Of a stretch of DNA of 17,687 bases, positions 6,423-17,687 are shown piece by piece. This DNA comes from a virus. Under the pieces are notes generated by a model. That model saw only the letters and a program-made list of their open reading frames with translations, was not told the DNA's origin and searched no databases. The DNA is taken from UHGV virus genome UHGV-0085586, one strand, 5' to 3'. Each line of letters begins with the position of its first letter. Position 1 is the first letter of the stretch. A program made the position numbers and the translations under genes.

Positions 6423-6613
6423 GGACGCACCTCCGCCGTAGTTACGTATTTAACCGGGCTACCTTTCATTGAGATGGTTTCACACATCTCTGCCGCTTTC
6501 AGTTCCGCTGTTTTTCTGGATTTATAGCGACGGTGCCAGACAGATACATCCGTGCGAACTGATACATCGTTTCTGTATTCCGTAGTGGAGATGATGATTT
6601 CGTAACTAATCAT
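6419..6613 (-). CDS. Hypothetical small protein (64 aa)
   Basis: ATG at 6611-6613 (minus) preceded by AGGAGG at 7 nt; ATGA overlaps with both neighbours. Confidence 0.55.
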   Translation of the reverse strand: MISYEIIISTTEYRNDVSVRTDVSVWHRRYKSRKTAELKAAEMCETISMKGSPVKYVTTAEVRP

Positions 6614-7173
6614 GGGCGAACCTCCTTGTCAGAACCATTCAGCCTGGAATCAACAAGTGCAGCGCCAAAAACAGCATCACCAACACGGTCGTACAGTTTG
6701 CTAGCCAGCGGAGATTCAACGGCCTTAAGCATTGGATAAAGCTGGCTTGTCCAGATTTGATGGATTTCACGCAAATGCAGGTATACGCCTCTGGCGTTTC
6801 GTGCGACAGCTGACATATCAGACGCATCGGCACCTGATAAACTCTTCTCCATCAGGTTAAAGGCGTTGATGTATGCCTCTTTGAACCGGGCAGCACGTTT
6901 ACCCGTGAAACCCATAGCAAGAAATGCAAAACCGTCTCGTGTGATTTGATAGCAAGGGAGCTTGCGTGTACCACCGTTCGGTTGATTTACCGAAATCGAT
7001 GTCTCCGCAAAATTGCGGGCACAAAACTCAGGGGAACAATCCAGAGTGCGGATCTTTTTCAGCACATCGTCGTGACGCTTGGAGAAGAAGTTGGCAACAG
7101 CCAAAGAAGTGGTAACGGCCTGGCCGTTGTCAATGGTGATTTCAGGTTGAGTGAGGGCTGGGATCGTAGCCAT
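6610..7173 (-). CDS. Rha-family phage regulatory protein (antirepressor-like), copy 3
   Basis: 187 aa from internal ATG at 7171-7173, 8 nt after GGAGG. Rha-type signature begins here (NGQAVTTSLAVANFFSKRHDDVLKKIR...YQITRDGFAFLAMGFTGKRAARFKEAYINAFNLME). The track ORF extends to 7470 through the leader; see findings. Confidence 0.75.
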   Translation of the reverse strand: MATIPALTQPEITIDNGQAVTTSLAVANFFSKRHDDVLKKIRTLDCSPEFCARNFAETSISVNQPNGGTRKLPCYQITRDGFAFLAMGFTGKRAARFKEAYINAFNLMEKSLSGADASDMSAVARNARGVYLHLREIHQIWTSQLYPMLKAVESPLASKLYDRVGDAVFGAALVDSRLNGSDKEVRP

Positions 7174-7470
7174 GATGGCAGCCTCCGTTGACAGTGAAAA
7201 ACTTCCACCACCGGAAACGCCAATTCCACTGGTGGTGAACTGGACGGGGTTGGCGTAACCGGCGTCAACGGAGACCGGCGCACCTTTCGGTGCCCCCGCC
7301 CAGCCCACCATAATCTGGATGTGAGCAAATGCGGACGATAAAAAAGACGCTGGCGCGTCATACATCGCCGTTGACAATTTCAGGACGCCAATCCCGGCAC
7401 CCGCTTTATAAGGTGCCTGAGCAGTGTAACGTCCCGAAATTGCAGAATCAATATGCTGGTGGCGGATCAT
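7174..7470 (-). promoter_or_regulatory. Structured leader copy A (c4-like tripartite RNA element: promoter-like site, terminator hairpin, GNRA hairpin, anti-SD, SD)
   Basis: Minus-strand TTGATT-17-TACACT (plus 7446-7451 / 7423-7428); hairpin gacgcGCCAgcgtc + U6 (plus 7340-7359); GAAA-loop hairpin (7280-7293); GUCAACGG at 7368-7377 and at the SD (7183-7192); complementary CCGUUGAC at 7262-7271. Confidence 0.6.
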
Positions 7471-7829
7471 AGGTGCACCTCCCGTTGATTACGACGGAAC
7501 GCGGAGTGACCCTGGACGGTTTCAGCCTCATGGAATGCTTCAATACAGCTCTCGTAGTACCGCATTGTGCGCAGACTTAACCCAAGCTGAAGCATCATCA
7601 GACCATCAAGGGTGATGTAATAACCACGCAGGGAGTCACCGTAGATGTGATAAGTACCCGGTATGAAATTGCGGGTAAAAAACTCGCGTGAGCAGTTCAG
7701 ATACTCGATTTTGTCAACGATGTTCTGGTGCATGCGCTTGAAATGGCAGGCAACATGCAGGGAGAAAATAACGGCCTTGCCGTTGACGACTTCGATTTTT
7801 AGGAATGGGGAAGTTAGGACAGTAGCCAT
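7467..7829 (-). CDS. Rha-family phage regulatory protein (short, antirepressor-like), copy 2
   Basis: 120 aa from internal ATG at 7827-7829 preceded by the same ACGGAGGCTGCCATC-ATG context as copy 3. Rha-like block (...GKAVIFSLHVACHFKRMHQNIVDKI...YYITLDGLMMLQLG...). Stop overlaps the leader-A ATG at 7470. Confidence 0.7.
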   Translation of the reverse strand: MATVLTSPFLKIEVVNGKAVIFSLHVACHFKRMHQNIVDKIEYLNCSREFFTRNFIPGTYHIYGDSLRGYYITLDGLMMLQLGLSLRTMRYYESCIEAFHEAETVQGHSAFRRNQREVHL

Positions 7830-8129
7830 GATGGCAGCCTCCGTATGCAATGGATAACTTCCACCACCGGAGCTGCGAAACTCATGGGTGGTGAACTGAA
7901 CAGGGTTCGCAGTACCGGCGCATACGGAAACCGGCGAGCCTTTCGGCTCCCCTGCCCAGCCCACCATAATTCTGGCGTGCGTGAGCGCGGACGATAAAAA
8001 AGACGCTGGCGCGTCATATATCGCCGTATGCAATTCCGGGCTGCGACCCCCGGCACCCGCTTTATAAGGTGCAGAGACAGTGTAACGTCCCGAAATTGCA
8101 GAATCAATATTTGGTCTTGAAATGATCAT
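7830..8129 (-). promoter_or_regulatory. Structured leader copy B (paralogous to copy A, altered pairing specificity)
   Basis: Same architecture: promoter-like TTGATT-17-TACACT (plus 8102-8107 / 8079-8084), terminator hairpin + U6 (7996-8015), GAAA hairpin (7936-7949). The three elements read GCAUACGG (8024-8031 and 7841-7848) versus CCGUAUGC (7920-7927). Confidence 0.6.
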
Positions 8130-8213
8130 ATAGCTGCTGATATCTTTAGAACTGTTCTTGGATGTTTCGGAGCCGTTTTATGCGAAACAGCTCCCCGTTA
8201 TTGATGTTGAGTG

Positions 8214-8238
8214 AGCCGGGTTACTCCCGGCTTTTTTT
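8214..8238 (+). terminator. Plus-strand-oriented intrinsic terminator-like hairpin between antirepressor genes (orphan)
   Basis: Stem agccggg (8214-8220) / cccggct (8226-8232), loop ttact, followed by T7 on the plus strand (8232-8238). On the minus strand an A-run precedes it, so it is not a minus-strand terminator. A second hairpin lies at 8168-8195. Confidence 0.4.
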
Positions 8239-8945
8239 CACCGCTGCCAACCAATAACCTGAAATAACCCCATTTTCGGGTGATACCAGCGAGTCCCTCG
8301 CGGTTCTGCTTCCTCCATAACCCGATAAAAAGCAGCCATAAACGGTTCCACAGCAACAATTGCGCGACGTGACAACAATCCGTCCGGCGTCATGAACTCA
8401 TGTGTATCTGTAGGAATTTGATAGGCGTTCACCAGATTGCGGCATTTATCATCTGACAAACCGGTTTTTGCTTTCAGTTGGCGATATCCGGCATAGCCCT
8501 CACGAATAGTGCCCTTTTTAATTTGCTCGACTGTTTCAGCAACGTGGCTGACTTTTTCTTCCACCTGAGTGATCCGTTTCTGTTGGCGAACGGCTTCAAG
8601 AGCCATCGCGGCAACCATTTCGATTTCGCTCATTGGCTTACGGATCTGTTCTTCCAGTTCGCGCCAGCGATCTACCAGGCGAGCTGTGAATTCAGGACAG
8701 AGCTGTGCGACGACAATGATGCTGTCGCGCTTACCTTGTTCACCTTCGAATACATACGCGCTAGAAAATCGGCGAGGCCCAAGTGATTGTTTATTCTCAA
8801 TTTCCACAGTCTGTGGAAATTGGATGATTCCCTTTTTAGCCAGTGTTTCAATAGTTCTCTTAACACTATCTGGTCGGCTTCCCACCAGCTCTGCGATCTC
8901 AACGCTGGTCATGGATGCTTTGCCGTTAAAAATTGCGGTGTTCAT
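8238..8945 (-). CDS. Phage regulatory protein, Rha/antirepressor family with C-terminal extension, copy 1
   Basis: 235 aa; ATG at 8943-8945 (minus), 7 nt after AGGAGA. N-terminal MTSVEIAELVGSRPDSVKRTIETL... and ...VVAQLCPEFTARLVDRWRELEEQ resemble phage antirepressor DNA-binding domains. Confidence 0.75.
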   Translation of the reverse strand: MNTAIFNGKASMTSVEIAELVGSRPDSVKRTIETLAKKGIIQFPQTVEIENKQSLGPRRFSSAYVFEGEQGKRDSIIVVAQLCPEFTARLVDRWRELEEQIRKPMSEIEMVAAMALEAVRQQKRITQVEEKVSHVAETVEQIKKGTIREGYAGYRQLKAKTGLSDDKCRNLVNAYQIPTDTHEFMTPDGLLSRRAIVAVEPFMAAFYRVMEEAEPRGTRWYHPKMGLFQVIGWQR

Positions 8946-9186: not shown

Positions 9187-9258
9187 GATACTTTGTTATC
9201 CAACGATGTTAACCACAGGAATCCAAAGTATCAAGAAATTCTGTTACTTTAGTATCAA
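9187..9258. promoter_or_regulatory. OR-like divergent promoter/operator region between the Cro-position gene and the repressor
   Basis: Three copies of A(A/G)GTATCA: 9187-9195 (inverted), 9226-9233, 9251-9258. Palindrome AAGTATCA-N8-TGTTACTT at 9226-9249. Minus-strand pR candidate TTGATA(9229-9234)-17-TAACAT(9206-9211). Confidence 0.45.
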
Positions 9259-9280
9259 CAACCATGAGAGGAGAAGAAAA

Positions 9281-9937
9281 ATGAAGTCTTTAGGTGAACG
9301 TCTCATCAACGCACGGCAAAAAGCTGGGTTAACACAAGATGCGTTGGCTAAAAAAGCTGGGATCACCAGAGTTGCAATCAGTAAAGCCGAGCAAGGCCTT
9401 ACAAAAAGTTTCAACGGTGACACCCTTTTTAAAGTTGCAGCTGCACTGCGGTGTTCACCGCAGTGGCTTCAGAACGGAGATGAAAAAGATAAGCATTGGG
9501 AAAATAATGTTAAGAGCTGCCCACAGAGAGACACAGCACACTCTTACCCTGTAATTAACTGGGTTCAGGCAGGATTATTCGCAACTTCTGGTGATGACTA
9601 CAACATGTATGATCAGGATAATTGGAGGCATTCTGTAAAATACGCTGGTGAGAGGGGGTTCTGGCTGGAAGTGCACGGAGACTCAATGACTTCGCCCGTA
9701 GGAATAACATTTCCTGAAGGAATGTCGATCCTTGTCAACCCAGATAAAGAAGTTTTTTCAGGGTGTTACGTCATCGCCAGAAAAAAATCCACCAATGAAG
9801 CAACATTCAAAAAATATATTTCTGACATGGGAAAGGCGTTTCTAAAGCCCCTTAATCCACAATATCCAATCATAGAAATGGACAATGATTGCGAAATAGT
9901 AGGTGTTGTGGTTGATGCCAGGTGGGATATTTTCTGA
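9281..9937 (+). CDS. cI-type prophage repressor, HTH-XRE N-domain + S24 (LexA-like) autopeptidase C-domain
   Basis: 218 aa from ATG 9281, after gagaggagaag. HTH (LTQDALAKKAGITRVAISKAEQG); Ala-Gly cleavage site (VQAGLF); Ser nucleophile in GDSM and downstream Lys (ARKKS). The track ORF starts at 9206 in the leader. Confidence 0.9.
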   Translation: MKSLGERLINARQKAGLTQDALAKKAGITRVAISKAEQGLTKSFNGDTLFKVAAALRCSPQWLQNGDEKDKHWENNVKSCPQRDTAHSYPVINWVQAGLFATSGDDYNMYDQDNWRHSVKYAGERGFWLEVHGDSMTSPVGITFPEGMSILVNPDKEVFSGCYVIARKKSTNEATFKKYISDMGKAFLKPLNPQYPIIEMDNDCEIVGVVVDARWDIF

Positions 9938-12639: not shown

Positions 12640-12919
12640 CTCACAACTAACCATAGAAACGGCCCTGAATGTCGGCCTGGCACTTCTCGGTTGGCTTTAC
12701 ATCATGTCCCGTACATGGCGATGGCTGGGTTCCATTTTCCTAAAACAGTGGAAAAAACGGCGCAAACAGGAACTACGCCAGAAGGCATTAGAAGCGTTCT
12801 ATGACGCATTTGAGCTTAGCCGCATTGAACCAGGTACAACAGCCAGGATAGCGACAAAAGGCGACCTGATGATAGTGATGTTCCGACAGGAGAGAGCAGA
12901 GAAAGGGGAATCAGCATGA
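12629..12919 (+). CDS. Small predicted membrane protein (96 aa, one TM helix)
   Basis: ATG 12629 overlaps the previous gene by 11 nt. Hydrophobic segment LNVGLALLGWLYIMS followed by a basic stretch (KQWKKRRKQELRQK). Confidence 0.5.
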   Translation: MATDSQLTIETALNVGLALLGWLYIMSRTWRWLGSIFLKQWKKRRKQELRQKALEAFYDAFELSRIEPGTTARIATKGDLMIVMFRQERAEKGESA

Positions 12920-13656
12920 AATTTTCCAAATTTTCTGAGTTGGTGAATCGTATTTTGTCCAACAACCACAGCCATCGTCGCGATATGGATGTAACGATCG
13001 TTGTTCATTCGCCTGGCAGCATTGGTTCAACACCCTCAGTTGAAGTTCAGTCAATTCACGCTGGTTTTGATTGGGATTCCGGGAAAGTGCTGATTTTCCC
13101 AGCACAGCCACTGACCACTCTAACACCAGAACAGATTACTGATATTACTGATAGTGTGCGCAAAGGTCAGTCCTGGCACGCATATCAGGAATACAAGAAG
13201 CATAAAGAGCAGTTGGAAAAATTATCGATTGAACTTGATGCCGCAAAACAGCGCATTGCAGAGCTGGAGGGTAATTTCACGGCGCTGGCAGCGGAGAATG
13301 CGGGAATAAAGTCTGCAATTCCAGAATCACGGGATATTGAAGATGACAATGACAATATGGATGACGTATCTCTCGCGGAAGACTTCGGGTTCAATCATGC
13401 AATAGGACGGATGAGGAGACAGATACCTGAAACGCCAACCACTGATGCTTTCCTGGCTGAAGTCCTGGCGCAGGGGGTGGATGCTGCTATAGAAGCTGCA
13501 AAAAATCTGGTGGCCCAAGAATATGAGTATAAGGATTTCAAAGCGGCGCAGAGTGATTGCTGTATGTACCCTGGTTCAGACCTGGTAGGGAAGGTTGAAA
13601 TGACTGAGTGGTTAGTTGACTTTGCTGCCCAGCTTCGCAAAGGAGGCAACCAGTGA
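12916..13656 (+). CDS. Hypothetical protein with central coiled-coil and acidic segment (246 aa)
   Basis: ATG 12916 overlaps the upstream stop (ATGA), after gagaaaggggaatcagc. Coiled-coil-like EQLEKLSIELDAAKQRIAELEGNF. Confidence 0.65.
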   Translation: MKFSKFSELVNRILSNNHSHRRDMDVTIVVHSPGSIGSTPSVEVQSIHAGFDWDSGKVLIFPAQPLTTLTPEQITDITDSVRKGQSWHAYQEYKKHKEQLEKLSIELDAAKQRIAELEGNFTALAAENAGIKSAIPESRDIEDDNDNMDDVSLAEDFGFNHAIGRMRRQIPETPTTDAFLAEVLAQGVDAAIEAAKNLVAQEYEYKDFKAAQSDCCMYPGSDLVGKVEMTEWLVDFAAQLRKGGNQ

Positions 13657-14138
13657 GCGAAATTAATTACCAGGCACTGCGTGAGGTGGCGGAACGTGCA
13701 ATTCCAGCAATGGAACGCCTGTTAATGTTGCCAGCTGATGATGACTTGTTAAGTGAACAGGAACTTAAAGATTACGGTGTGGATATTGATGCGCTCAACG
13801 CCTTCAAATTTCTGACCGGACCAGAAACCGTGCTGGCACTGCTGGATGAACGGGAAAGAAACCTGCAATACATCAAAAGCCGCGATCAGGAGAACGAGGA
13901 TATTGCGCTAACGGTAGGGAAGCTGCGCGTTGAGCTTGAAGCAGAAAAACAGCGGGCAAAAGTTCTATTTATGGAAAATGCTCGGCTTAAGTCAGGCATA
14001 GCCGGTCTGATACACCTCGGTATTCGATATGCAGATGTTGAGGTCATGAAAATTGCTGGAGATGCCCAGCTTTCTACCCCATGCACTGACAGCATCATAA
14101 ACAGCATTGCAACAGGCATTCGCATCAAAGGAGAGTGA
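13653..14138 (+). CDS. Ea22-like early-left accessory protein (161 aa)
   Basis: GTG start at 13653 preceded by AAGGAGG. N-terminus MSEINYQALREVAERA and ...LLDERERNLQYIKSRDQENEDIALTVGKLRVELE...GIRIKGE resemble my recollection of lambda Ea22-family proteins; unverified. Confidence 0.55.
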   Translation: MSEINYQALREVAERAIPAMERLLMLPADDDLLSEQELKDYGVDIDALNAFKFLTGPETVLALLDERERNLQYIKSRDQENEDIALTVGKLRVELEAEKQRAKVLFMENARLKSGIAGLIHLGIRYADVEVMKIAGDAQLSTPCTDSIINSIATGIRIKGE

Positions 14139-14139
14139 T

Positions 14140-14655
14140 ATGGCGTTAACACACCACGAACTCTGTCAGATTGCGTACAAGTTCCTTAAGCGCAACGGGT
14201 TCAAGGTTTGCTTTCATGACCGCTTTGTTGCTGTAACCAGTACCGGAGAACAGCCAGATGCTATGGGATTCAGAAATTCAGCATCATGCCTGATAGAGGC
14301 GAAGTGTTCTCGTGCTGACTTGTTGGCAGATAGAAAAAAGCGTTTCCGTAAAAATCCCTCACTTGGCATGGGCGACTGGCGATTCTTTATTAGTGAGCCG
14401 GAAATTATTTCAGTTGAGGATTTACCTCCCGGCTGGGGATTACTTCACGTTGTTAACGGAAGAGTACGGAAAGTACATGGATGGCCCAGGGGTAATTGCT
14501 GTTGGGGTAATCCTGACGATAAGCCATTTACTGGGAATAAGCAGGTTGAATGCGATTACATGTTATCTGCATTAAGGCGCATGGAGTTGAGAGGGCACCT
14601 TAATGAAATATATGACGGTGTGATTGTTAATAAGAAAGAAGGAAACGCGGCATGA
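14140..14655 (+). CDS. Hypothetical protein with PD-(D/E)xK nuclease-like motif (171 aa)
   Basis: ATG 14140 after aaggagagtgat. Motif order E (HELCQ) ... PD (GEQPDAMGF) ... ExK (LIEAKCS) with ~12-residue D-to-E spacing. The track ORF starts at TTG 14107. Confidence 0.6.
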   Translation: MALTHHELCQIAYKFLKRNGFKVCFHDRFVAVTSTGEQPDAMGFRNSASCLIEAKCSRADLLADRKKRFRKNPSLGMGDWRFFISEPEIISVEDLPPGWGLLHVVNGRVRKVHGWPRGNCCWGNPDDKPFTGNKQVECDYMLSALRRMELRGHLNEIYDGVIVNKKEGNAA

Positions 14656-15596
14656 TCACTATTACCAAAGGGCGACTGCTGACAATCAAGCAGTGGCGCG
14701 AAACATACGGACCGGGTAGCAACGTTGTACTGCCAGCAGAAGAAGCGGAAGAACTGTCACGGATTGCACTGGCATCATTGGAAGCAGATCCAGTTAAACG
14801 AGTTAACTCAGATCAGATGCACCGAGTCTGCTTAGAAGCTAATCGCTATTTAGATAAATATGACGCGATGGCGAAAGAGGTAAATAAGTTGCTTGGACGC
14901 ACCGCCCCGCCAGCGCCAGTATTTAACGGCGAATACGGTGACGCATATCAGGGCGCTCGTGAAGACCTGTCCATCTGGAAACGGCGAGCGCTTGAAGCTG
15001 ATGAGCACGTTCGGCGACTGGAGCAAATCAATGACCACATGGTGAAAGAGGCGCAGGGAGAATCACGCATGGGCGAGCCTGTAATACGTGAGCCAGCACC
15101 GGTAGTGCCTGAAGAAGCAACTCCGGAAAACGTAGAAATGCTCTCTGGCTATGTTTCAACGTACAAATTAACCGATAGCGAGCGCGATATTGCTGCCGAA
15201 ATATGGAACGCCTGCCGCGCCGCCATGCTTCAGTCCGGAAACTTTCGGGAAAACAAGAATTCGTCAACCAATAATTTTCGGGAAATCGCGGAAACGTCAA
15301 CCAACTATCCGGCAATTCCTAGTGAGGTGTTGTCCGCAATCCTGAAGGTTGCCAGGATTCGTGCCGATTTCGATGATTTTGACGGTGACAGGCGAGGTAT
15401 CGGTGATTGTCTGGATGAGGCTGAGCAAGAGCTTATCGTTACCATTAACAAATATGCCAGTCAGTTGGCAGCAGAACCTATAGCGCCTAATGACGTTCGA
15501 GAGCAGACAGCCATTCCACAAGTTCCGGTAACTCCGGATGGTTGGATAAGCTGTAGTGAGCGAATGCCGGACGACAGGCAGGAGGTGAATCAATGA
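14652..15596 (+). CDS. Hypothetical protein (314 aa), C-terminus resembling the start of a DUF551-type motif
   Basis: ATG 14652 overlaps the upstream stop (ATGA). Ends ...TPDGWISCSERMPDDRQEVNQ; the GW-I-S...E-R-x-P pattern resembles the beginning of DUF551 as I recall it, but the ORF stops soon after. Confidence 0.6.
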   Translation: MITITKGRLLTIKQWRETYGPGSNVVLPAEEAEELSRIALASLEADPVKRVNSDQMHRVCLEANRYLDKYDAMAKEVNKLLGRTAPPAPVFNGEYGDAYQGAREDLSIWKRRALEADEHVRRLEQINDHMVKEAQGESRMGEPVIREPAPVVPEEATPENVEMLSGYVSTYKLTDSERDIAAEIWNACRAAMLQSGNFRENKNSSTNNFREIAETSTNYPAIPSEVLSAILKVARIRADFDDFDGDRRGIGDCLDEAEQELIVTINKYASQLAAEPIAPNDVREQTAIPQVPVTPDGWISCSERMPDDRQEVNQ

Positions 15597-15676
15597 GCTG
15601 GCCTGATGCAATCGTAACTCTGGGGGTGGTATTCGCAGCAGCGTTTGTTGTGTTCTCGATTTGTCGATGGGGATAA
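15593..15676 (+). CDS. Candidate 27-aa hydrophobic micro-protein
   Basis: ATG 15593 overlaps the upstream stop (ATGA), 7 nt after AGGAGG (15580-15585). Encodes MSWPDAIVTLGVVFAAAFVVFSICRWG; stop TAA 15674-15676. Below the track's length cutoff. Confidence 0.35.
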   Translation: MSWPDAIVTLGVVFAAAFVVFSICRWG

Positions 15677-15680
15677 CCAC

Positions 15681-15923
15681 ATGTTCGCTTTGATTCAACG
15701 CGGTCAGATATACACGGACAGAGCCGGATACCCCGTGGTGATTACTCGCATCACTGAGCACTCAGTGTTCTTTCGACGGATGGACGGACGATCCGGGCGG
15801 GTACGCATTGGTGAGTTAAACTGCCTGTTCGAACATATTGACCACCAGGAGTACCGCAAAATTCTCGCGGACACTGAGCAGGAAAAGCACCTGAAAAAAT
15901 TACGAGCCATAAAAAGGAAGTAA
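15681..15923 (+). CDS. Small conserved prophage protein (80 aa; possibly DUF4222-like)
   Basis: ATG 15681 (the track ORF starts at 15645). MFALIQRGQIYTDRAGYPVVITRITEHSVFF... Family assignment is from memory and uncertain. Confidence 0.5.
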   Translation: MFALIQRGQIYTDRAGYPVVITRITEHSVFFRRMDGRSGRVRIGELNCLFEHIDHQEYRKILADTEQEKHLKKLRAIKRK

Positions 15924-15926
15924 AGA

Positions 15927-16073
15927 ATGAATAAAGCATTTGAACGATGGGTCCACCAGCGTTACGGCAATCGCTATGACCTGACGCGAGATGTTGACGG
16001 CTTCTACTGTCGTGAAGTTGTGAAGCGAATGTTTGAAGTGTGTTGCCACTGCCGTGGGCTGAGTGTTGTGTGA
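15927..16073 (+). CDS. Candidate 48-aa Cys-rich small protein
   Basis: ATG 15927, 7 nt after AAGGAAG; encodes MNKAFERWVHQRYGNRYDLTRDVDGFYCREVVKRMFEVCCHCRGLSVV; stop TGA 16071-16073. C-x10-CCHC spacing suggests possible metal binding. Confidence 0.4.
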   Translation: MNKAFERWVHQRYGNRYDLTRDVDGFYCREVVKRMFEVCCHCRGLSVV

Positions 16074-16081
16074 GGTAATAC

Positions 16082-16318
16082 ATGGGCAATGTGATTCAAC
16101 TGGCTCCCAATGAATGGGTTTGTGAAAGCGTTCTTATCGCAATTACCGGGCTCAAACCAGGCACAATTCTTCGGGCCCGGAAAGAATGCTGGATGGTTGG
16201 AAGAGAGTATATTCACGTATCACCAGACGGTAATCCAAAGCCTTCCAGTGAATGTATGTATAACAGAAAAGCAATAGATGCCTGGGTCGCCTCAATGAAA
16301 AACAAACAACCCAGGTGA
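16082..16318 (+). CDS. Putative excisionase / small DNA-binding recombination directionality factor
   Basis: 78 aa, ATG 16082 after tgaggtaata; small basic protein immediately upstream of the integrase. Call is positional and by recollection of Rac/e14-type excisionases. Confidence 0.6.
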   Translation: MGNVIQLAPNEWVCESVLIAITGLKPGTILRARKECWMVGREYIHVSPDGNPKPSSECMYNRKAIDAWVASMKNKQPR

Positions 16319-16373
16319 TTTAATATCATGAAATATGTAAGCTCGTATCGCTCTTGGGCGTCTGGAGGTATCG

Positions 16374-17687
16374 ATGGATAAAGTCAAATATCCAACAGGC
16401 GTCGAAAACCACGGCGGCACATTACGCATCTGGTTTAATTTTAAAGGTAAACGTGTCAGGGAAAATCTTGGTGTCCCTGACACTGCCAAGAACAGGAAGA
16501 TCGCCGGGGAACTGCGGACATCAGTATGTTTTGCCATCCGCACAGGAAGCTTTGATTATGCTGCACAGTTCCCTGACTCCCCCAACCTTCAGGCTTTTGG
16601 GGTAAGTAAAAAAGAAATTACGGTGAAGGAACTTGAAGAAAAGTGGCTGGATCTGAAACGAATGGAAATCTCTGCAAATGCATTCAATCGCTATGAATCC
16701 GTTGCAAGAACGATGGTTCCGAAAATTGGAGGCAGTAGACTGGTGTCATCGGTAACCAAAGAGGAATTGCTGTATATCAGGAAAGATTTGCTTACCGGGT
16801 ATCAGAATTCAACGAAAAACAAAGCAGCAGCAAAAGGACGGAGCGTCGTTACTGTAAATTATTACATGACGACAATCGCTGGAATGTTTCAGTTTGCTGC
16901 AGATCACGGTTACTTAGAAGCAAATCCCTTCCAGGGAATTAAGCCTCTTAAAAGAGCCAGGGCAGAGCCAGATCCGCTAACTCGTGACGAATTTATTCGC
17001 CTGATAGATGCTTGCCGACATCAGCAGACGAAAAACCTGTGGTCATTGGCTGTGTACACAGGAATGCGTCACGGTGAACTGGTCTCCCTGGCCTGGGAAG
17101 ATATCGATCTGAAGGCAGGAACAATTACCATCAGGCGCAATTATACGAAACTTGGTGAGTTCACTCTACCGAAAACTGAAGCAAGCACAAACAGGGTTGT
17201 GCACCTTATCCAGCCCGCTATCAGTGTCCTGAAAAATCAGGCTGAAATGACAAGACTGGGTAAGCAGTACAACATCAAGGTGCAACTACGTGAATATGGA
17301 CGTTCAGTGAACCATGAATGTACTTTCGTGTTTAACCCTCAAGTGGTTAGAAAAAGCGAACAGGTAGGTTTTGTCTACAAAGTCGATTCTGTAGGTGACT
17401 CATGGGAAACAGCCATTAAGCGTGCAGGGATCAGGCATCGAAAGGCATACCAGTCACGACACACTTATGCGTGCTGGTCATTATCTGCCGGAGCAAACCC
17501 AAGCTTCATTGCCAGCCAGATGGGCCATGCAAGTGCCCAGATGGTATTCAATGTATACGGAGCATGGATGACTGACAGCAATGCAGAACAGATCGCAATG
17601 CTGAATCAGAAGCTGACAGATTATGTCCCAATGATGCCCCATAGTCACCAAAGTGACACCAGAGGCTTATTAAAATCAGTAAGTTAA
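16374..17687 (+). CDS. Tyrosine site-specific integrase (Rac IntR-like phage integrase)
   Basis: 437 aa; ATG 16374 after tggaggtatcg; stop TAA at the window end. Catalytic-domain motifs (...MRHGELVSLAWEDIDL..., HRKAYQSRHTYACWS, ...MVFNVYGAW...). Overall resemblance to Rac-type integrases by recollection. Confidence 0.9.
   Translation: MDKVKYPTGVENHGGTLRIWFNFKGKRVRENLGVPDTAKNRKIAGELRTSVCFAIRTGSFDYAAQFPDSPNLQAFGVSKKEITVKELEEKWLDLKRMEISANAFNRYESVARTMVPKIGGSRLVSSVTKEELLYIRKDLLTGYQNSTKNKAAAKGRSVVTVNYYMTTIAGMFQFAADHGYLEANPFQGIKPLKRARAEPDPLTRDEFIRLIDACRHQQTKNLWSLAVYTGMRHGELVSLAWEDIDLKAGTITIRRNYTKLGEFTLPKTEASTNRVVHLIQPAISVLKNQAEMTRLGKQYNIKVQLREYGRSVNHECTFVFNPQVVRKSEQVGFVYKVDSVGDSWETAIKRAGIRHRKAYQSRHTYACWSLSAGANPSFIASQMGHASAQMVFNVYGAWMTDSNAEQIAMLNQKLTDYVPMMPHSHQSDTRGLLKSVS

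Follow-up and report, generated by a model that had tools for sequence, protein, structure and literature searches.

The viral DNA UHGV-0085586 raises the question of whether three genes that lie back to back on it, each sharing four bases with the next, form one functional system or are independent neighbors. The whole 17,687-nucleotide (nt) stretch that was analyzed, referred to here as the window, is a lambdoid Escherichia coli prophage. The three open reading frames (ORFs) had been described in the first-pass annotation of the bare sequence as chained by ATGA overlaps, and this was borne out on the + strand, as follows (aa, amino acids):

14128–14133, + strand: Shine-Dalgarno (SD) sequence AAGGAG of the 171-aa gene (anti-SD duplex −9.1 kcal/mol)
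14140–14655, + strand: 171-aa ORF
14652–14655: ATGA start/stop overlap of the 171-aa and 314-aa ORFs
14652–15596, + strand: 314-aa ORF
15580–15585, + strand: SD sequence AGGAGG of the 27-aa ORF, inside the Q-E-V codons of the tail of the 314-aa gene
15593–15596: ATGA start/stop overlap of the 314-aa and 27-aa ORFs
15593–15676, + strand: 27-aa ORF

Overlapping stop and start codons are routine in phage operons and, for that reason, are by themselves of no significance and no sign of a functional unit. In lambdoid phages, translationally coupled junctions and mosaic module boundaries are the expected architecture, and the ATGA overlaps and homology breaks at gene boundaries in this locus are likewise nothing unusual. 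The three genes are independent cassettes in the usual mosaic, with junctions at gene boundaries. As a whole, we consider it probable that the locus is a piece of a mosaic pL operon in which three coupled but independent cassettes, for a nuclease-fold enzyme, a protein with a deleted DUF551 domain and a membrane peptide, would be read one after another by translational coupling.

Comparative analyses of the 27-codon ORF indicated that it is, as far as sequence can tell, a genuine conserved small gene that is essentially unannotated. Distant BLAST matches in other genomes (74–78% identity) covered almost exactly the block from the SD to the stop codon (window 15578–15677); there, the block starts within the end of a DUF551 gene and extends into DNA that carries no annotation. 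Every distant copy of the block contained a 27-codon ORF with the same ends (one example is MSWPEAFAIVGVAISIALIIFSICRWG). The first-pass annotation had made the standing of this ORF depend on its conservation in homologous loci, and its persistence at 27 codons in diverged copies exceeded chance. Copies were counted with a strict pattern in which the first five and last three codons were fixed, and the wider family was defined by the pattern M-[STN]-W-P-[DE]-A ... G11 ... R-W-[GRW]-stop together with a strong SD and an ATGA overlap with the upstream stop codon, a pattern that the window copy fits. Among about 185,000 species genomes, two had copies matching the strict pattern (E. coli and Shigella flexneri), and at least 120 viral contigs also matched. 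The window and the fetched loci together yielded 132 strict copies, all of them open, which fell into 19 variants at the protein level and 29 at the nucleotide level. Three further variants that do not fit this pattern came from three other phage groups, namely the 933W-type Shiga toxin 2 (Stx2) phages, a P1-like Punavirus and the virulent Vequintavirinae phage Av-05. The gene upstream of the ORF is not a DUF551 gene in the 933W-type Stx2 phages, and in Av-05 its C-terminus is not of DUF551 type.

The pattern of substitution within the ORF was that of a protein-coding sequence with a constrained hydrophobic product. In the unconstrained interior, 14/19, 9/19 and 19/20 sites were variable at codon positions 1, 2 and 3, respectively (position 2 versus 3, Fisher p = 0.0012), and the ratio based on nonsynonymous and synonymous polymorphism (pN/pS) was 0.29. 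Seven residues (M1, W3, P4, A6, G11, R25 and W26) were invariant among the variants, positions 7–24 were uncharged in all of them, and substitutions replaced one hydrophobic residue with another. The SD, start, length and stop were conserved in the sense frame only, and the module boundaries coincide with them.

The product of the window copy is MSWPDAIVTLGVVFAAAFVVFSICRWG. Its best 19-residue Kyte-Doolittle window scored 2.63, the hydrophobic core is bracketed by two tryptophans (W3 and W26) and the C-terminal end is basic, from which we infer a single-span inner-membrane micro-protein. The AGGAGG lies 7 nt before the ATG, as had been noted, and its predicted anti-SD pairing (−11.6 kcal/mol) was indeed the strongest among 16 starts, but only jointly, as it was tied with that of the gene at 13653. 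The cassette containing this SD, CAGGAGGTGA, precedes the ORF in nearly all copies. The strong SD and the start/stop overlap suggest that the ORF may be translated efficiently on the early transcript. Searches of PHROG, Pfam, NCBIfam and PADLOC with the peptide gave no matches, and its exact window variant was present in no sequence collection searched. Other variants appear in a small number of GenBank records, under the names "putative prophage protein" or "bacteriophage protein"; in all the RefSeq and phage records inspected, the slot of the 27-codon ORF was unannotated.

A 161-nt query made up of the DUF551 remnant and the 27-codon ORF had a partial or full match in 1799 of 5426 complete E. 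coli genomes, with at least 80% of the query covered in 447. The K-12 prophages Qin and CPS-53 had no copies of the ORF. As a side observation, locus L008 (1331–1966, from E. coli 203740) has a 62-aa DUF551 gene followed by the 27-codon ORF in a Qin-like nin region, just upstream of hokD; at the corresponding place K-12 Qin has relBE and no 27-codon ORF.

The three genes were found to assort independently, and for this reason we do not regard them as one system. A homologue of the 171-aa gene was present at only 23 of the 97 27-codon ORF loci with enough upstream DNA, and seven of these 23 were disrupted. In other genera the 171-aa family occurs without either partner gene, and a pair consisting of the 171-aa gene and a full-length (360-aa) DUF551 gene was also seen without the 27-codon ORF. 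By a rough count, about half to 60% of the tabulated copies of the ORF have the DUF4222 gene 4 nt beyond their stop. The DUF551 tail (...PLPEPPQEV(K/N)-stop) carries a near-constant SD cassette, CCGCAGGAGGTGA, which is found upstream of the 27-codon ORF, a 3'-5' exonuclease or NinX. This cassette may be a recombination-prone junction between modules. The 27-codon ORF normally sits directly behind such tails (...PLPEPPQEVNQ-stop), with its SD inside those codons. The cassette and the related features of the 314-aa gene are located as follows:

Window 15578–15596; L009 ~1670–1690; L010 ~1690–1710; L144 3568–3590: SD cassette of the DUF551 tail
15540–15587, + strand: DUF551 remnant (GWISCSERMPDDRQ plus EV), with a Pfam match to positions 1–16 of 68 only
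After the CAG at 15579–15581, + strand: in-frame deletion junction, with GCAG microhomology at 15578–15581

Analyses of the 314-aa gene indicated that the end of its product, which had been noted earlier as a truncated-looking GW-I-S...E-R-x-P motif, is a truncated DUF551 domain. The C-terminal end, GWISCSERMPDDRQEVNQ, covers only positions 1–16 of the 68-position DUF551 model, and the match scored 23.3 bits, barely over the 22-bit cut-off, compared with 69–76 bits over positions 1–68 in full-length relatives. Full DUF551 genes continue from ...GWISCSERMP(D/N/E)(D/E).Q through about 50 residues to (T/S/I)(H/N)W(M/I)PLPEPPQEV(K/N)-stop, whereas the 314-aa protein lacks the complete domain of about 68 positions with the (T/S)HWMPLPEPP ending of the full-length copies. 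Complete domains were found in L005, L009, L010 and the protein P0142. The latter, at 360 aa, has the complete domain (1–68 of 68) and is 96% identical to the 314-aa protein over the shared part; according to the called gene coordinates, its gene in L145 comes after the 171-aa gene and shares four bases with it at the start and stop codons. The DNA of the window was 99.66% identical to that of L144/L145 over 14117–15574 and divergent thereafter.

At the junction the window reads GAC GAC AGG CAG|GAG GTG AAT CAA TGA, a related full-length gene reads GAT GAC GGG CAG|TGG..., and every intact DUF551 tail examined reads CCG CCG CAG|GAG GTG. In addition, the 161-nt query corresponds to 320 nt in the O157 copy, which would amount to ~159 extra nt, or 53 codons. 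The simplest account would be an in-frame deletion of ~159 nt between two GCAG microhomologies that excised the DUF551 core. Of the domain, ~14 residues at the start and ~4 at the end would remain, along with the original stop codon and the SD used by the following gene. As the frame is unchanged and both the stop and the SD further downstream are retained, the truncation is not a frameshift. An uninterrupted longer gene in related prophages, as the first-pass annotation had envisaged, therefore does exist in the form of P0142, but the recent frameshift that was to accompany it does not, the lesion being a deletion. The deletion junction sequence was present in 31 of the 132 27-codon ORF copies examined; being common, the allele is suggested to be tolerated. 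The DUF551 function of the 314-aa protein has presumably been lost. Importantly, the 27-aa variant of the window was also found behind intact DUF551 tails, which indicates that the ORF predates the deletion and is not a remnant of it.

The remainder of the 314-aa protein is a mosaic, as different PHROGs match residues 1–53, 147–195, 183–297 and 259–312. Its exact sequence is deposited in GenBank as "DUF551 domain-containing protein". In copies annotated as intact, RefSeq places the start at the ATG at 14817 (259 aa); the SD at 14652 is the better of the two (−5.7 versus −2.5 kcal/mol), the start at 14652 overlaps the previous stop, and the N-terminus read from there (M-x-T-x-T-K ... ALASLEA-PV) is kept in paralogues whose next segments differ, with M-x-T-x-T-K also present in K-12 YfdT. 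The Ead_Ea22 coiled-coil model (PF13935) did not match the protein. A single-sequence AlphaFold2 model was helical with residues 274–314 disordered, at a confidence too poor to use (predicted local distance difference test, pLDDT, 49). The protein would be a modular helical member of the EaA/Ea22 variant 2 type that has lost its C-terminal DUF551 domain. With the DUF551 proteins of lambdoid phages (PF04448; P22 EaA-like, Ea22 variant 2 of Stx phages and K-12 YfdS) it shares the modular N-terminus (M-x-T-x-T-K ... ALASLEA-PV), the NACRAAML block, the domain start PVTPDGWISCSERMPDD and the tail QEVNQ-stop; unlike the full-length proteins, it is without ~53 core codons, including the (T/S)HWMPLPEPP motif. 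Its gene occupies the same exo-xis position as those of the mosaic Ea22 variants (PMC10834534). Two trivial short tandem repeats were the only ones found in the gene. Separately, P0145, a relative of 325 aa from Shigella boydii, carries a duplication of the 11-residue unit STNNFREIAET; in the window, at ~15240–15300 (residues ~197–217), the unit is complete once and degenerate once (GNFRENKNS), with no Tandem Repeats Finder call.

The 171-aa protein is, on the strength of its model, an intact protein of predicted PD-(D/E)xK fold that belongs to an unnamed family remotely related to the MmcB-like/DUF1052 proteins. The E...PD...ExK arrangement seen in the first reading of the sequence was located precisely:

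14248–14304, + strand: putative active-site codons E37 and D40 (GEQPD) and E53-x-K55 (IEAK), followed by the family signature SRADLLADRKK

The residues E37, D40, E53 and K55 were invariant both in the alignment of close homologues (A2) and in a set of 33–48% identity (A4). The AlphaFold model, built with 40 sequences, was confident (pLDDT 87.1; predicted template modeling score, pTM, 0.81) and gave a restriction-endonuclease-like alpha-beta-beta-beta-alpha-beta core, which is the fold that structure prediction had been expected to reveal if the early suggestion of a nuclease was right. In the model D40 lies just ahead of the strand formed by residues 41–45, and E53 and K55 at the C-terminal end of the strand 48–54 (K55 one residue past it), consistent with the acidic residue at the start of strand 2 and the (D/E)xK on strand 3 that are characteristic of the superfamily.

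The family is similar in structure and profile to 3dnx (SPO1766), which is the structure of DUF1052/PF06319 in a catalogue of PD-(D/E)XK proteins (PMC3424549); the current Pfam name of PF06319 is MmcB-like. Profile A4 reached 3dnx by sequence (E = 1.7e-5) with the motif ExK-S-R-A-D-F-x-x-D-x-K aligned, and the named proteins nearest to the model in a viral structure library were annotated as "MmcB family DNA repair protein". PF06319 was weakly matched by six of 41 distant relatives (best E = 2.9e-4). For the 171-aa protein itself there was no Pfam match at E ≤ 0.1 and no NCBIfam match, 40 close relatives gave no PF06319 match at E ≤ 1 and a PDB sequence search with the single protein returned noise only. 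PHROG families phrog_9263 and phrog_631 matched it over the full length. The family comprises 308 close homologues, mostly of about 155–200 aa, in Klebsiella, Lelliottia, Cronobacter, Pectobacterium, Serratia, Rahnella, Providencia, Morganella and other genera, and a profile search of 1.84 billion representatives returned 3250 clusters (50% identity) at E ≤ 1e-3. It differs from DUF1052, including Caulobacter crescentus MmcB, in that the 171-aa protein and its close relatives fall below the PF06319 model and in being carried by Enterobacterales phages and prophages, DUF1052 being mostly chromosomal in alpha-proteobacteria (PMC3424549). Conserved blocks beyond the motif (GMGDWRF, GWGLL and KP..NKQ.E) are a possible further difference.

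A role in tolerance to crosslinking agents is known only for Caulobacter MmcB, which the literature presents as a PD-(D/E)XK endonuclease conferring protection from mitomycin C and cisplatin (PMC9578287). In other genera, homologues of the 171-aa protein lie mainly in nin regions near recombination genes: directly beside RusA in Providencia, flanked by NinB and NinG in Lonsdalea and Morganella, and a few genes away from a RecA-dependent nuclease in Rahnella. In Cronobacter the homologue is in the early-left region, directly behind the gene for the single-stranded DNA-binding protein. We think it most likely that the protein acts on damaged or branched DNA; it would be a metal-dependent DNA endonuclease, probably specific for a structure or lesion, that aids the recombination or repair of phage DNA.

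The annotation of this gene appears to have been misled by a damaged relative. At each of the four RefSeq loci inspected, the initial 179 nt of this gene, itself intact, are annotated by PGAP as a "frameshifted" pseudogene (window 14140–14318; L001 3141–3319; L005 488–664). In O157:H7 prophages the gene lacks 2 bp precisely within the ExK codons and gives a 58-aa product (WP_001356547.1, matching phrog_16308) that is annotated as a protein. This truncated product appears to serve as the reference behind the pseudogene label; the window allele is the intact ancestral form.

Several other explanations of the locus were weighed against these data. If the three ORFs formed a single anti-defence or superinfection-exclusion module of nuclease, adaptor and membrane component, the kind of role proposed for them in the first-pass annotation, their tight ATGA chaining, their joint inheritance at 99.5–99.8% identity in 23 complete E. 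coli genomes and their location in an early accessory region would be explained. We nevertheless regard such a module as very unlikely, given the low frequency of the 171-aa homologue at 27-codon ORF loci, the presence of its family alone in nin regions of other genera, mainly beside recombination genes, the 171-aa and 360-aa pair that lacks the 27-codon ORF, the unrelated genes upstream of that ORF in the 933W-type and Av-05 phages and a PADLOC scan of the region that gave no matches. Nothing in the data pointed to anti-defence or exclusion. For the 171-aa protein alone, a degradative or host-directed nuclease (anti-plasmid, anti-phage or against host DNA) or a non-catalytic DNA binder would keep the same fold. 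This we consider rather unlikely, as the invariant catalytic residues speak against a non-catalytic role, the closest proteins by structure and profile are MmcB-like repair proteins rather than restriction enzymes, and no methyltransferase, immunity or specificity partner was seen near the gene, whose neighbors in other genera are NinB, NinG and RusA.

The 27-codon ORF might also not be a gene itself, either as a leftover of a frameshifted DUF551 domain or as a spacer that passes ribosomes downstream with an irrelevant peptide, and its overlap with the upstream stop, its end 4 nt before the start of DUF4222, whose SD is weak (−5.5 kcal/mol), and its neglect by gene callers and PGAP would fit. 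The frameshifted remnant, suggested as an alternative when the sequence was first read, was ruled out by the same ORF behind the natural stop of intact DUF551 genes, by the absence of any DUF551-like frame downstream of 15596 and by the nature of the lesion, which keeps the stop and the QEVNQ tail. A spacer, for its part, would not account for a length fixed at 27 codons, the seven invariant residues, the hydrophobic exchanges without charge at positions 7–24, the concentration of variation at third positions or the presence of the ORF with different downstream genes or none nearby. Based on this and on an RNA structure that is not unusual, we judge it unlikely that the ORF is not a gene. An RNA element at this site was rejected separately: no Rfam family matched, the fold of the region was no more stable than that of shuffled sequences (z = +1.4) and there was no excess of promoters or terminators. 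Lastly, the conserved signal at 15593–15676 could in principle belong to an antisense ORF, here a 154-aa − strand frame at 15297–15761, as the wobble-aligned frame is open in all eight main variants. That frame, however, overlaps the homology-supported 314-aa and DUF4222 genes, its start, SD and stop are not conserved and its extent varies from one flank to another, the limits of the homology block coincide exactly with the sense SD and sense stop, and GYN-rich hydrophobic codons are expected to leave the antisense frame open, all of which make this explanation extremely improbable. The 154-aa frame, running from the end of the 314-aa gene through the 27-codon ORF into the start of DUF4222, is probably a by-product of codon composition.

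Some observations do weigh against the reading of the locus as three independent cassettes with a small membrane gene and an MmcB-related nuclease. The copies of the 27-codon ORF are phylogenetically related and their counts are not independent. Since the antisense frame is also open with a similar pN/pS (0.22 versus 0.29 in the sense frame), substitution ratios alone do not fix the coding strand. The literature and the searched parts of supplements held no mention of the 27-aa peptide and no ribosome-profiling support for it, and no sequence was identified as the exact parent of the deletion allele. The 171-aa protein itself did not reach the PF06319 gathering threshold, and, because no Pfam or NCBIfam model was reached, its MmcB link leans on predicted structure and weak profile hits. 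The placement of its homologues in nin regions is only suggestive of a role, as these regions hold many unrelated genes.

The setting of the three genes is the pL-driven early-left accessory region, the equivalent of the lambda exo-xis region, in which they follow two Ead/Ea22-like genes as internal cistrons of a single operon. The other features of the window are as follows:

1–1083: full-length porin gene (Porin_1, E = 3e-153), adjoining the antiterminator Q gene, as in porin-carrying lambdoid prophages
− strand genes: antiterminator Q, DUF968, DnaB- and DnaC-like replication genes and Rha/Ash regulators
9206–9937, + strand: CI-type repressor
Downstream of the repressor, + strand: small genes in series, up to the excisionase and integrase
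12916–13656 and 13653–14138: two Ead/Ea22-like genes directly upstream of the 171-aa gene, with matches to the Ead_Ea22 model (PF13935)
14136–14138: stop codon of the upstream Ea22-like gene
15681–15923, + strand: DUF4222 gene (Pfam DUF4222, 8.2e-14), starting 4 nt past the stop of the 27-aa ORF
16082–16318, + strand: excisionase
16374 to the end of the window, + strand: tyrosine integrase

In simple consensus scans, promoter-like and terminator-like sites in 13500–16500 were not above shuffled sequence, and no Rfam families matched there. Near-identical copies (99.5–99.9%) of 14117–15950 were present in 23 complete E. coli genomes, and the four copies inspected were at two different integration sites. 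Two further observations concern the flanks. Three tandem Phage_pRha-domain genes, two of them also with Ash domains, lie on the − strand at 6610–8945, between the replication genes and a cro-like gene. A 48-aa ORF at 15927–16073, between DUF4222 and the excisionase, has a full-length match to phrog_3871 (E = 7.5e-33), and its relatives are annotated as hypothetical.

Small single-span membrane proteins are known in MgtS, AcrZ and KdpF and in the type I toxins DinQ, ShoB and TisB. Like these, the 27-aa peptide has fewer than 30 residues, one hydrophobic helix and flanking aromatic and basic residues, and is missed by standard annotation; no sequence similarity to them was seen. Its gene, unlike theirs, lies inside a long phage operon, where it is coupled to the tail of a DUF551 gene. 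Simple consensus scans and Rfam revealed no promoter, antisense RNA or terminator of its own. The most likely target of the peptide would be the inner membrane of the host or one of the host's membrane proteins. Small early proteins of the exo-xis region influence the lysis-lysogeny decision in lambdoid and Shiga-toxin phages (PMC10834534). A bolder proposal, which we put forward only tentatively as possible, is that the 27-aa peptide is an early phage membrane effector that binds a host inner-membrane protein, for example to block the entry of superinfecting DNA or to tune a transporter or sensor, and represents an unrecognized family of lambdoid, Stx-converting, P1-like and some virulent E. 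coli phages, and that the 171-aa family is at the same time a phage-borne MmcB-type lesion or branch endonuclease that aids prophage induction after crosslink damage.

Overall, the region is of an ordinary kind and adds one small gene that is mildly new. The novelty is modest and concerns a 27-aa phage membrane peptide that is all but unannotated and a large MmcB-related family without a name, and the findings are incremental cataloguing that leaves current concepts unchanged and provides two testable leads. The 171-aa family is large and without a Pfam model, and naming it and correcting the pseudogene label would improve prophage annotation. The 27-aa ORF, if confirmed, would mean that the exo-xis region of lambdoid and Shiga-toxin phages, which is under-studied, encodes an additional small membrane protein that is widespread.

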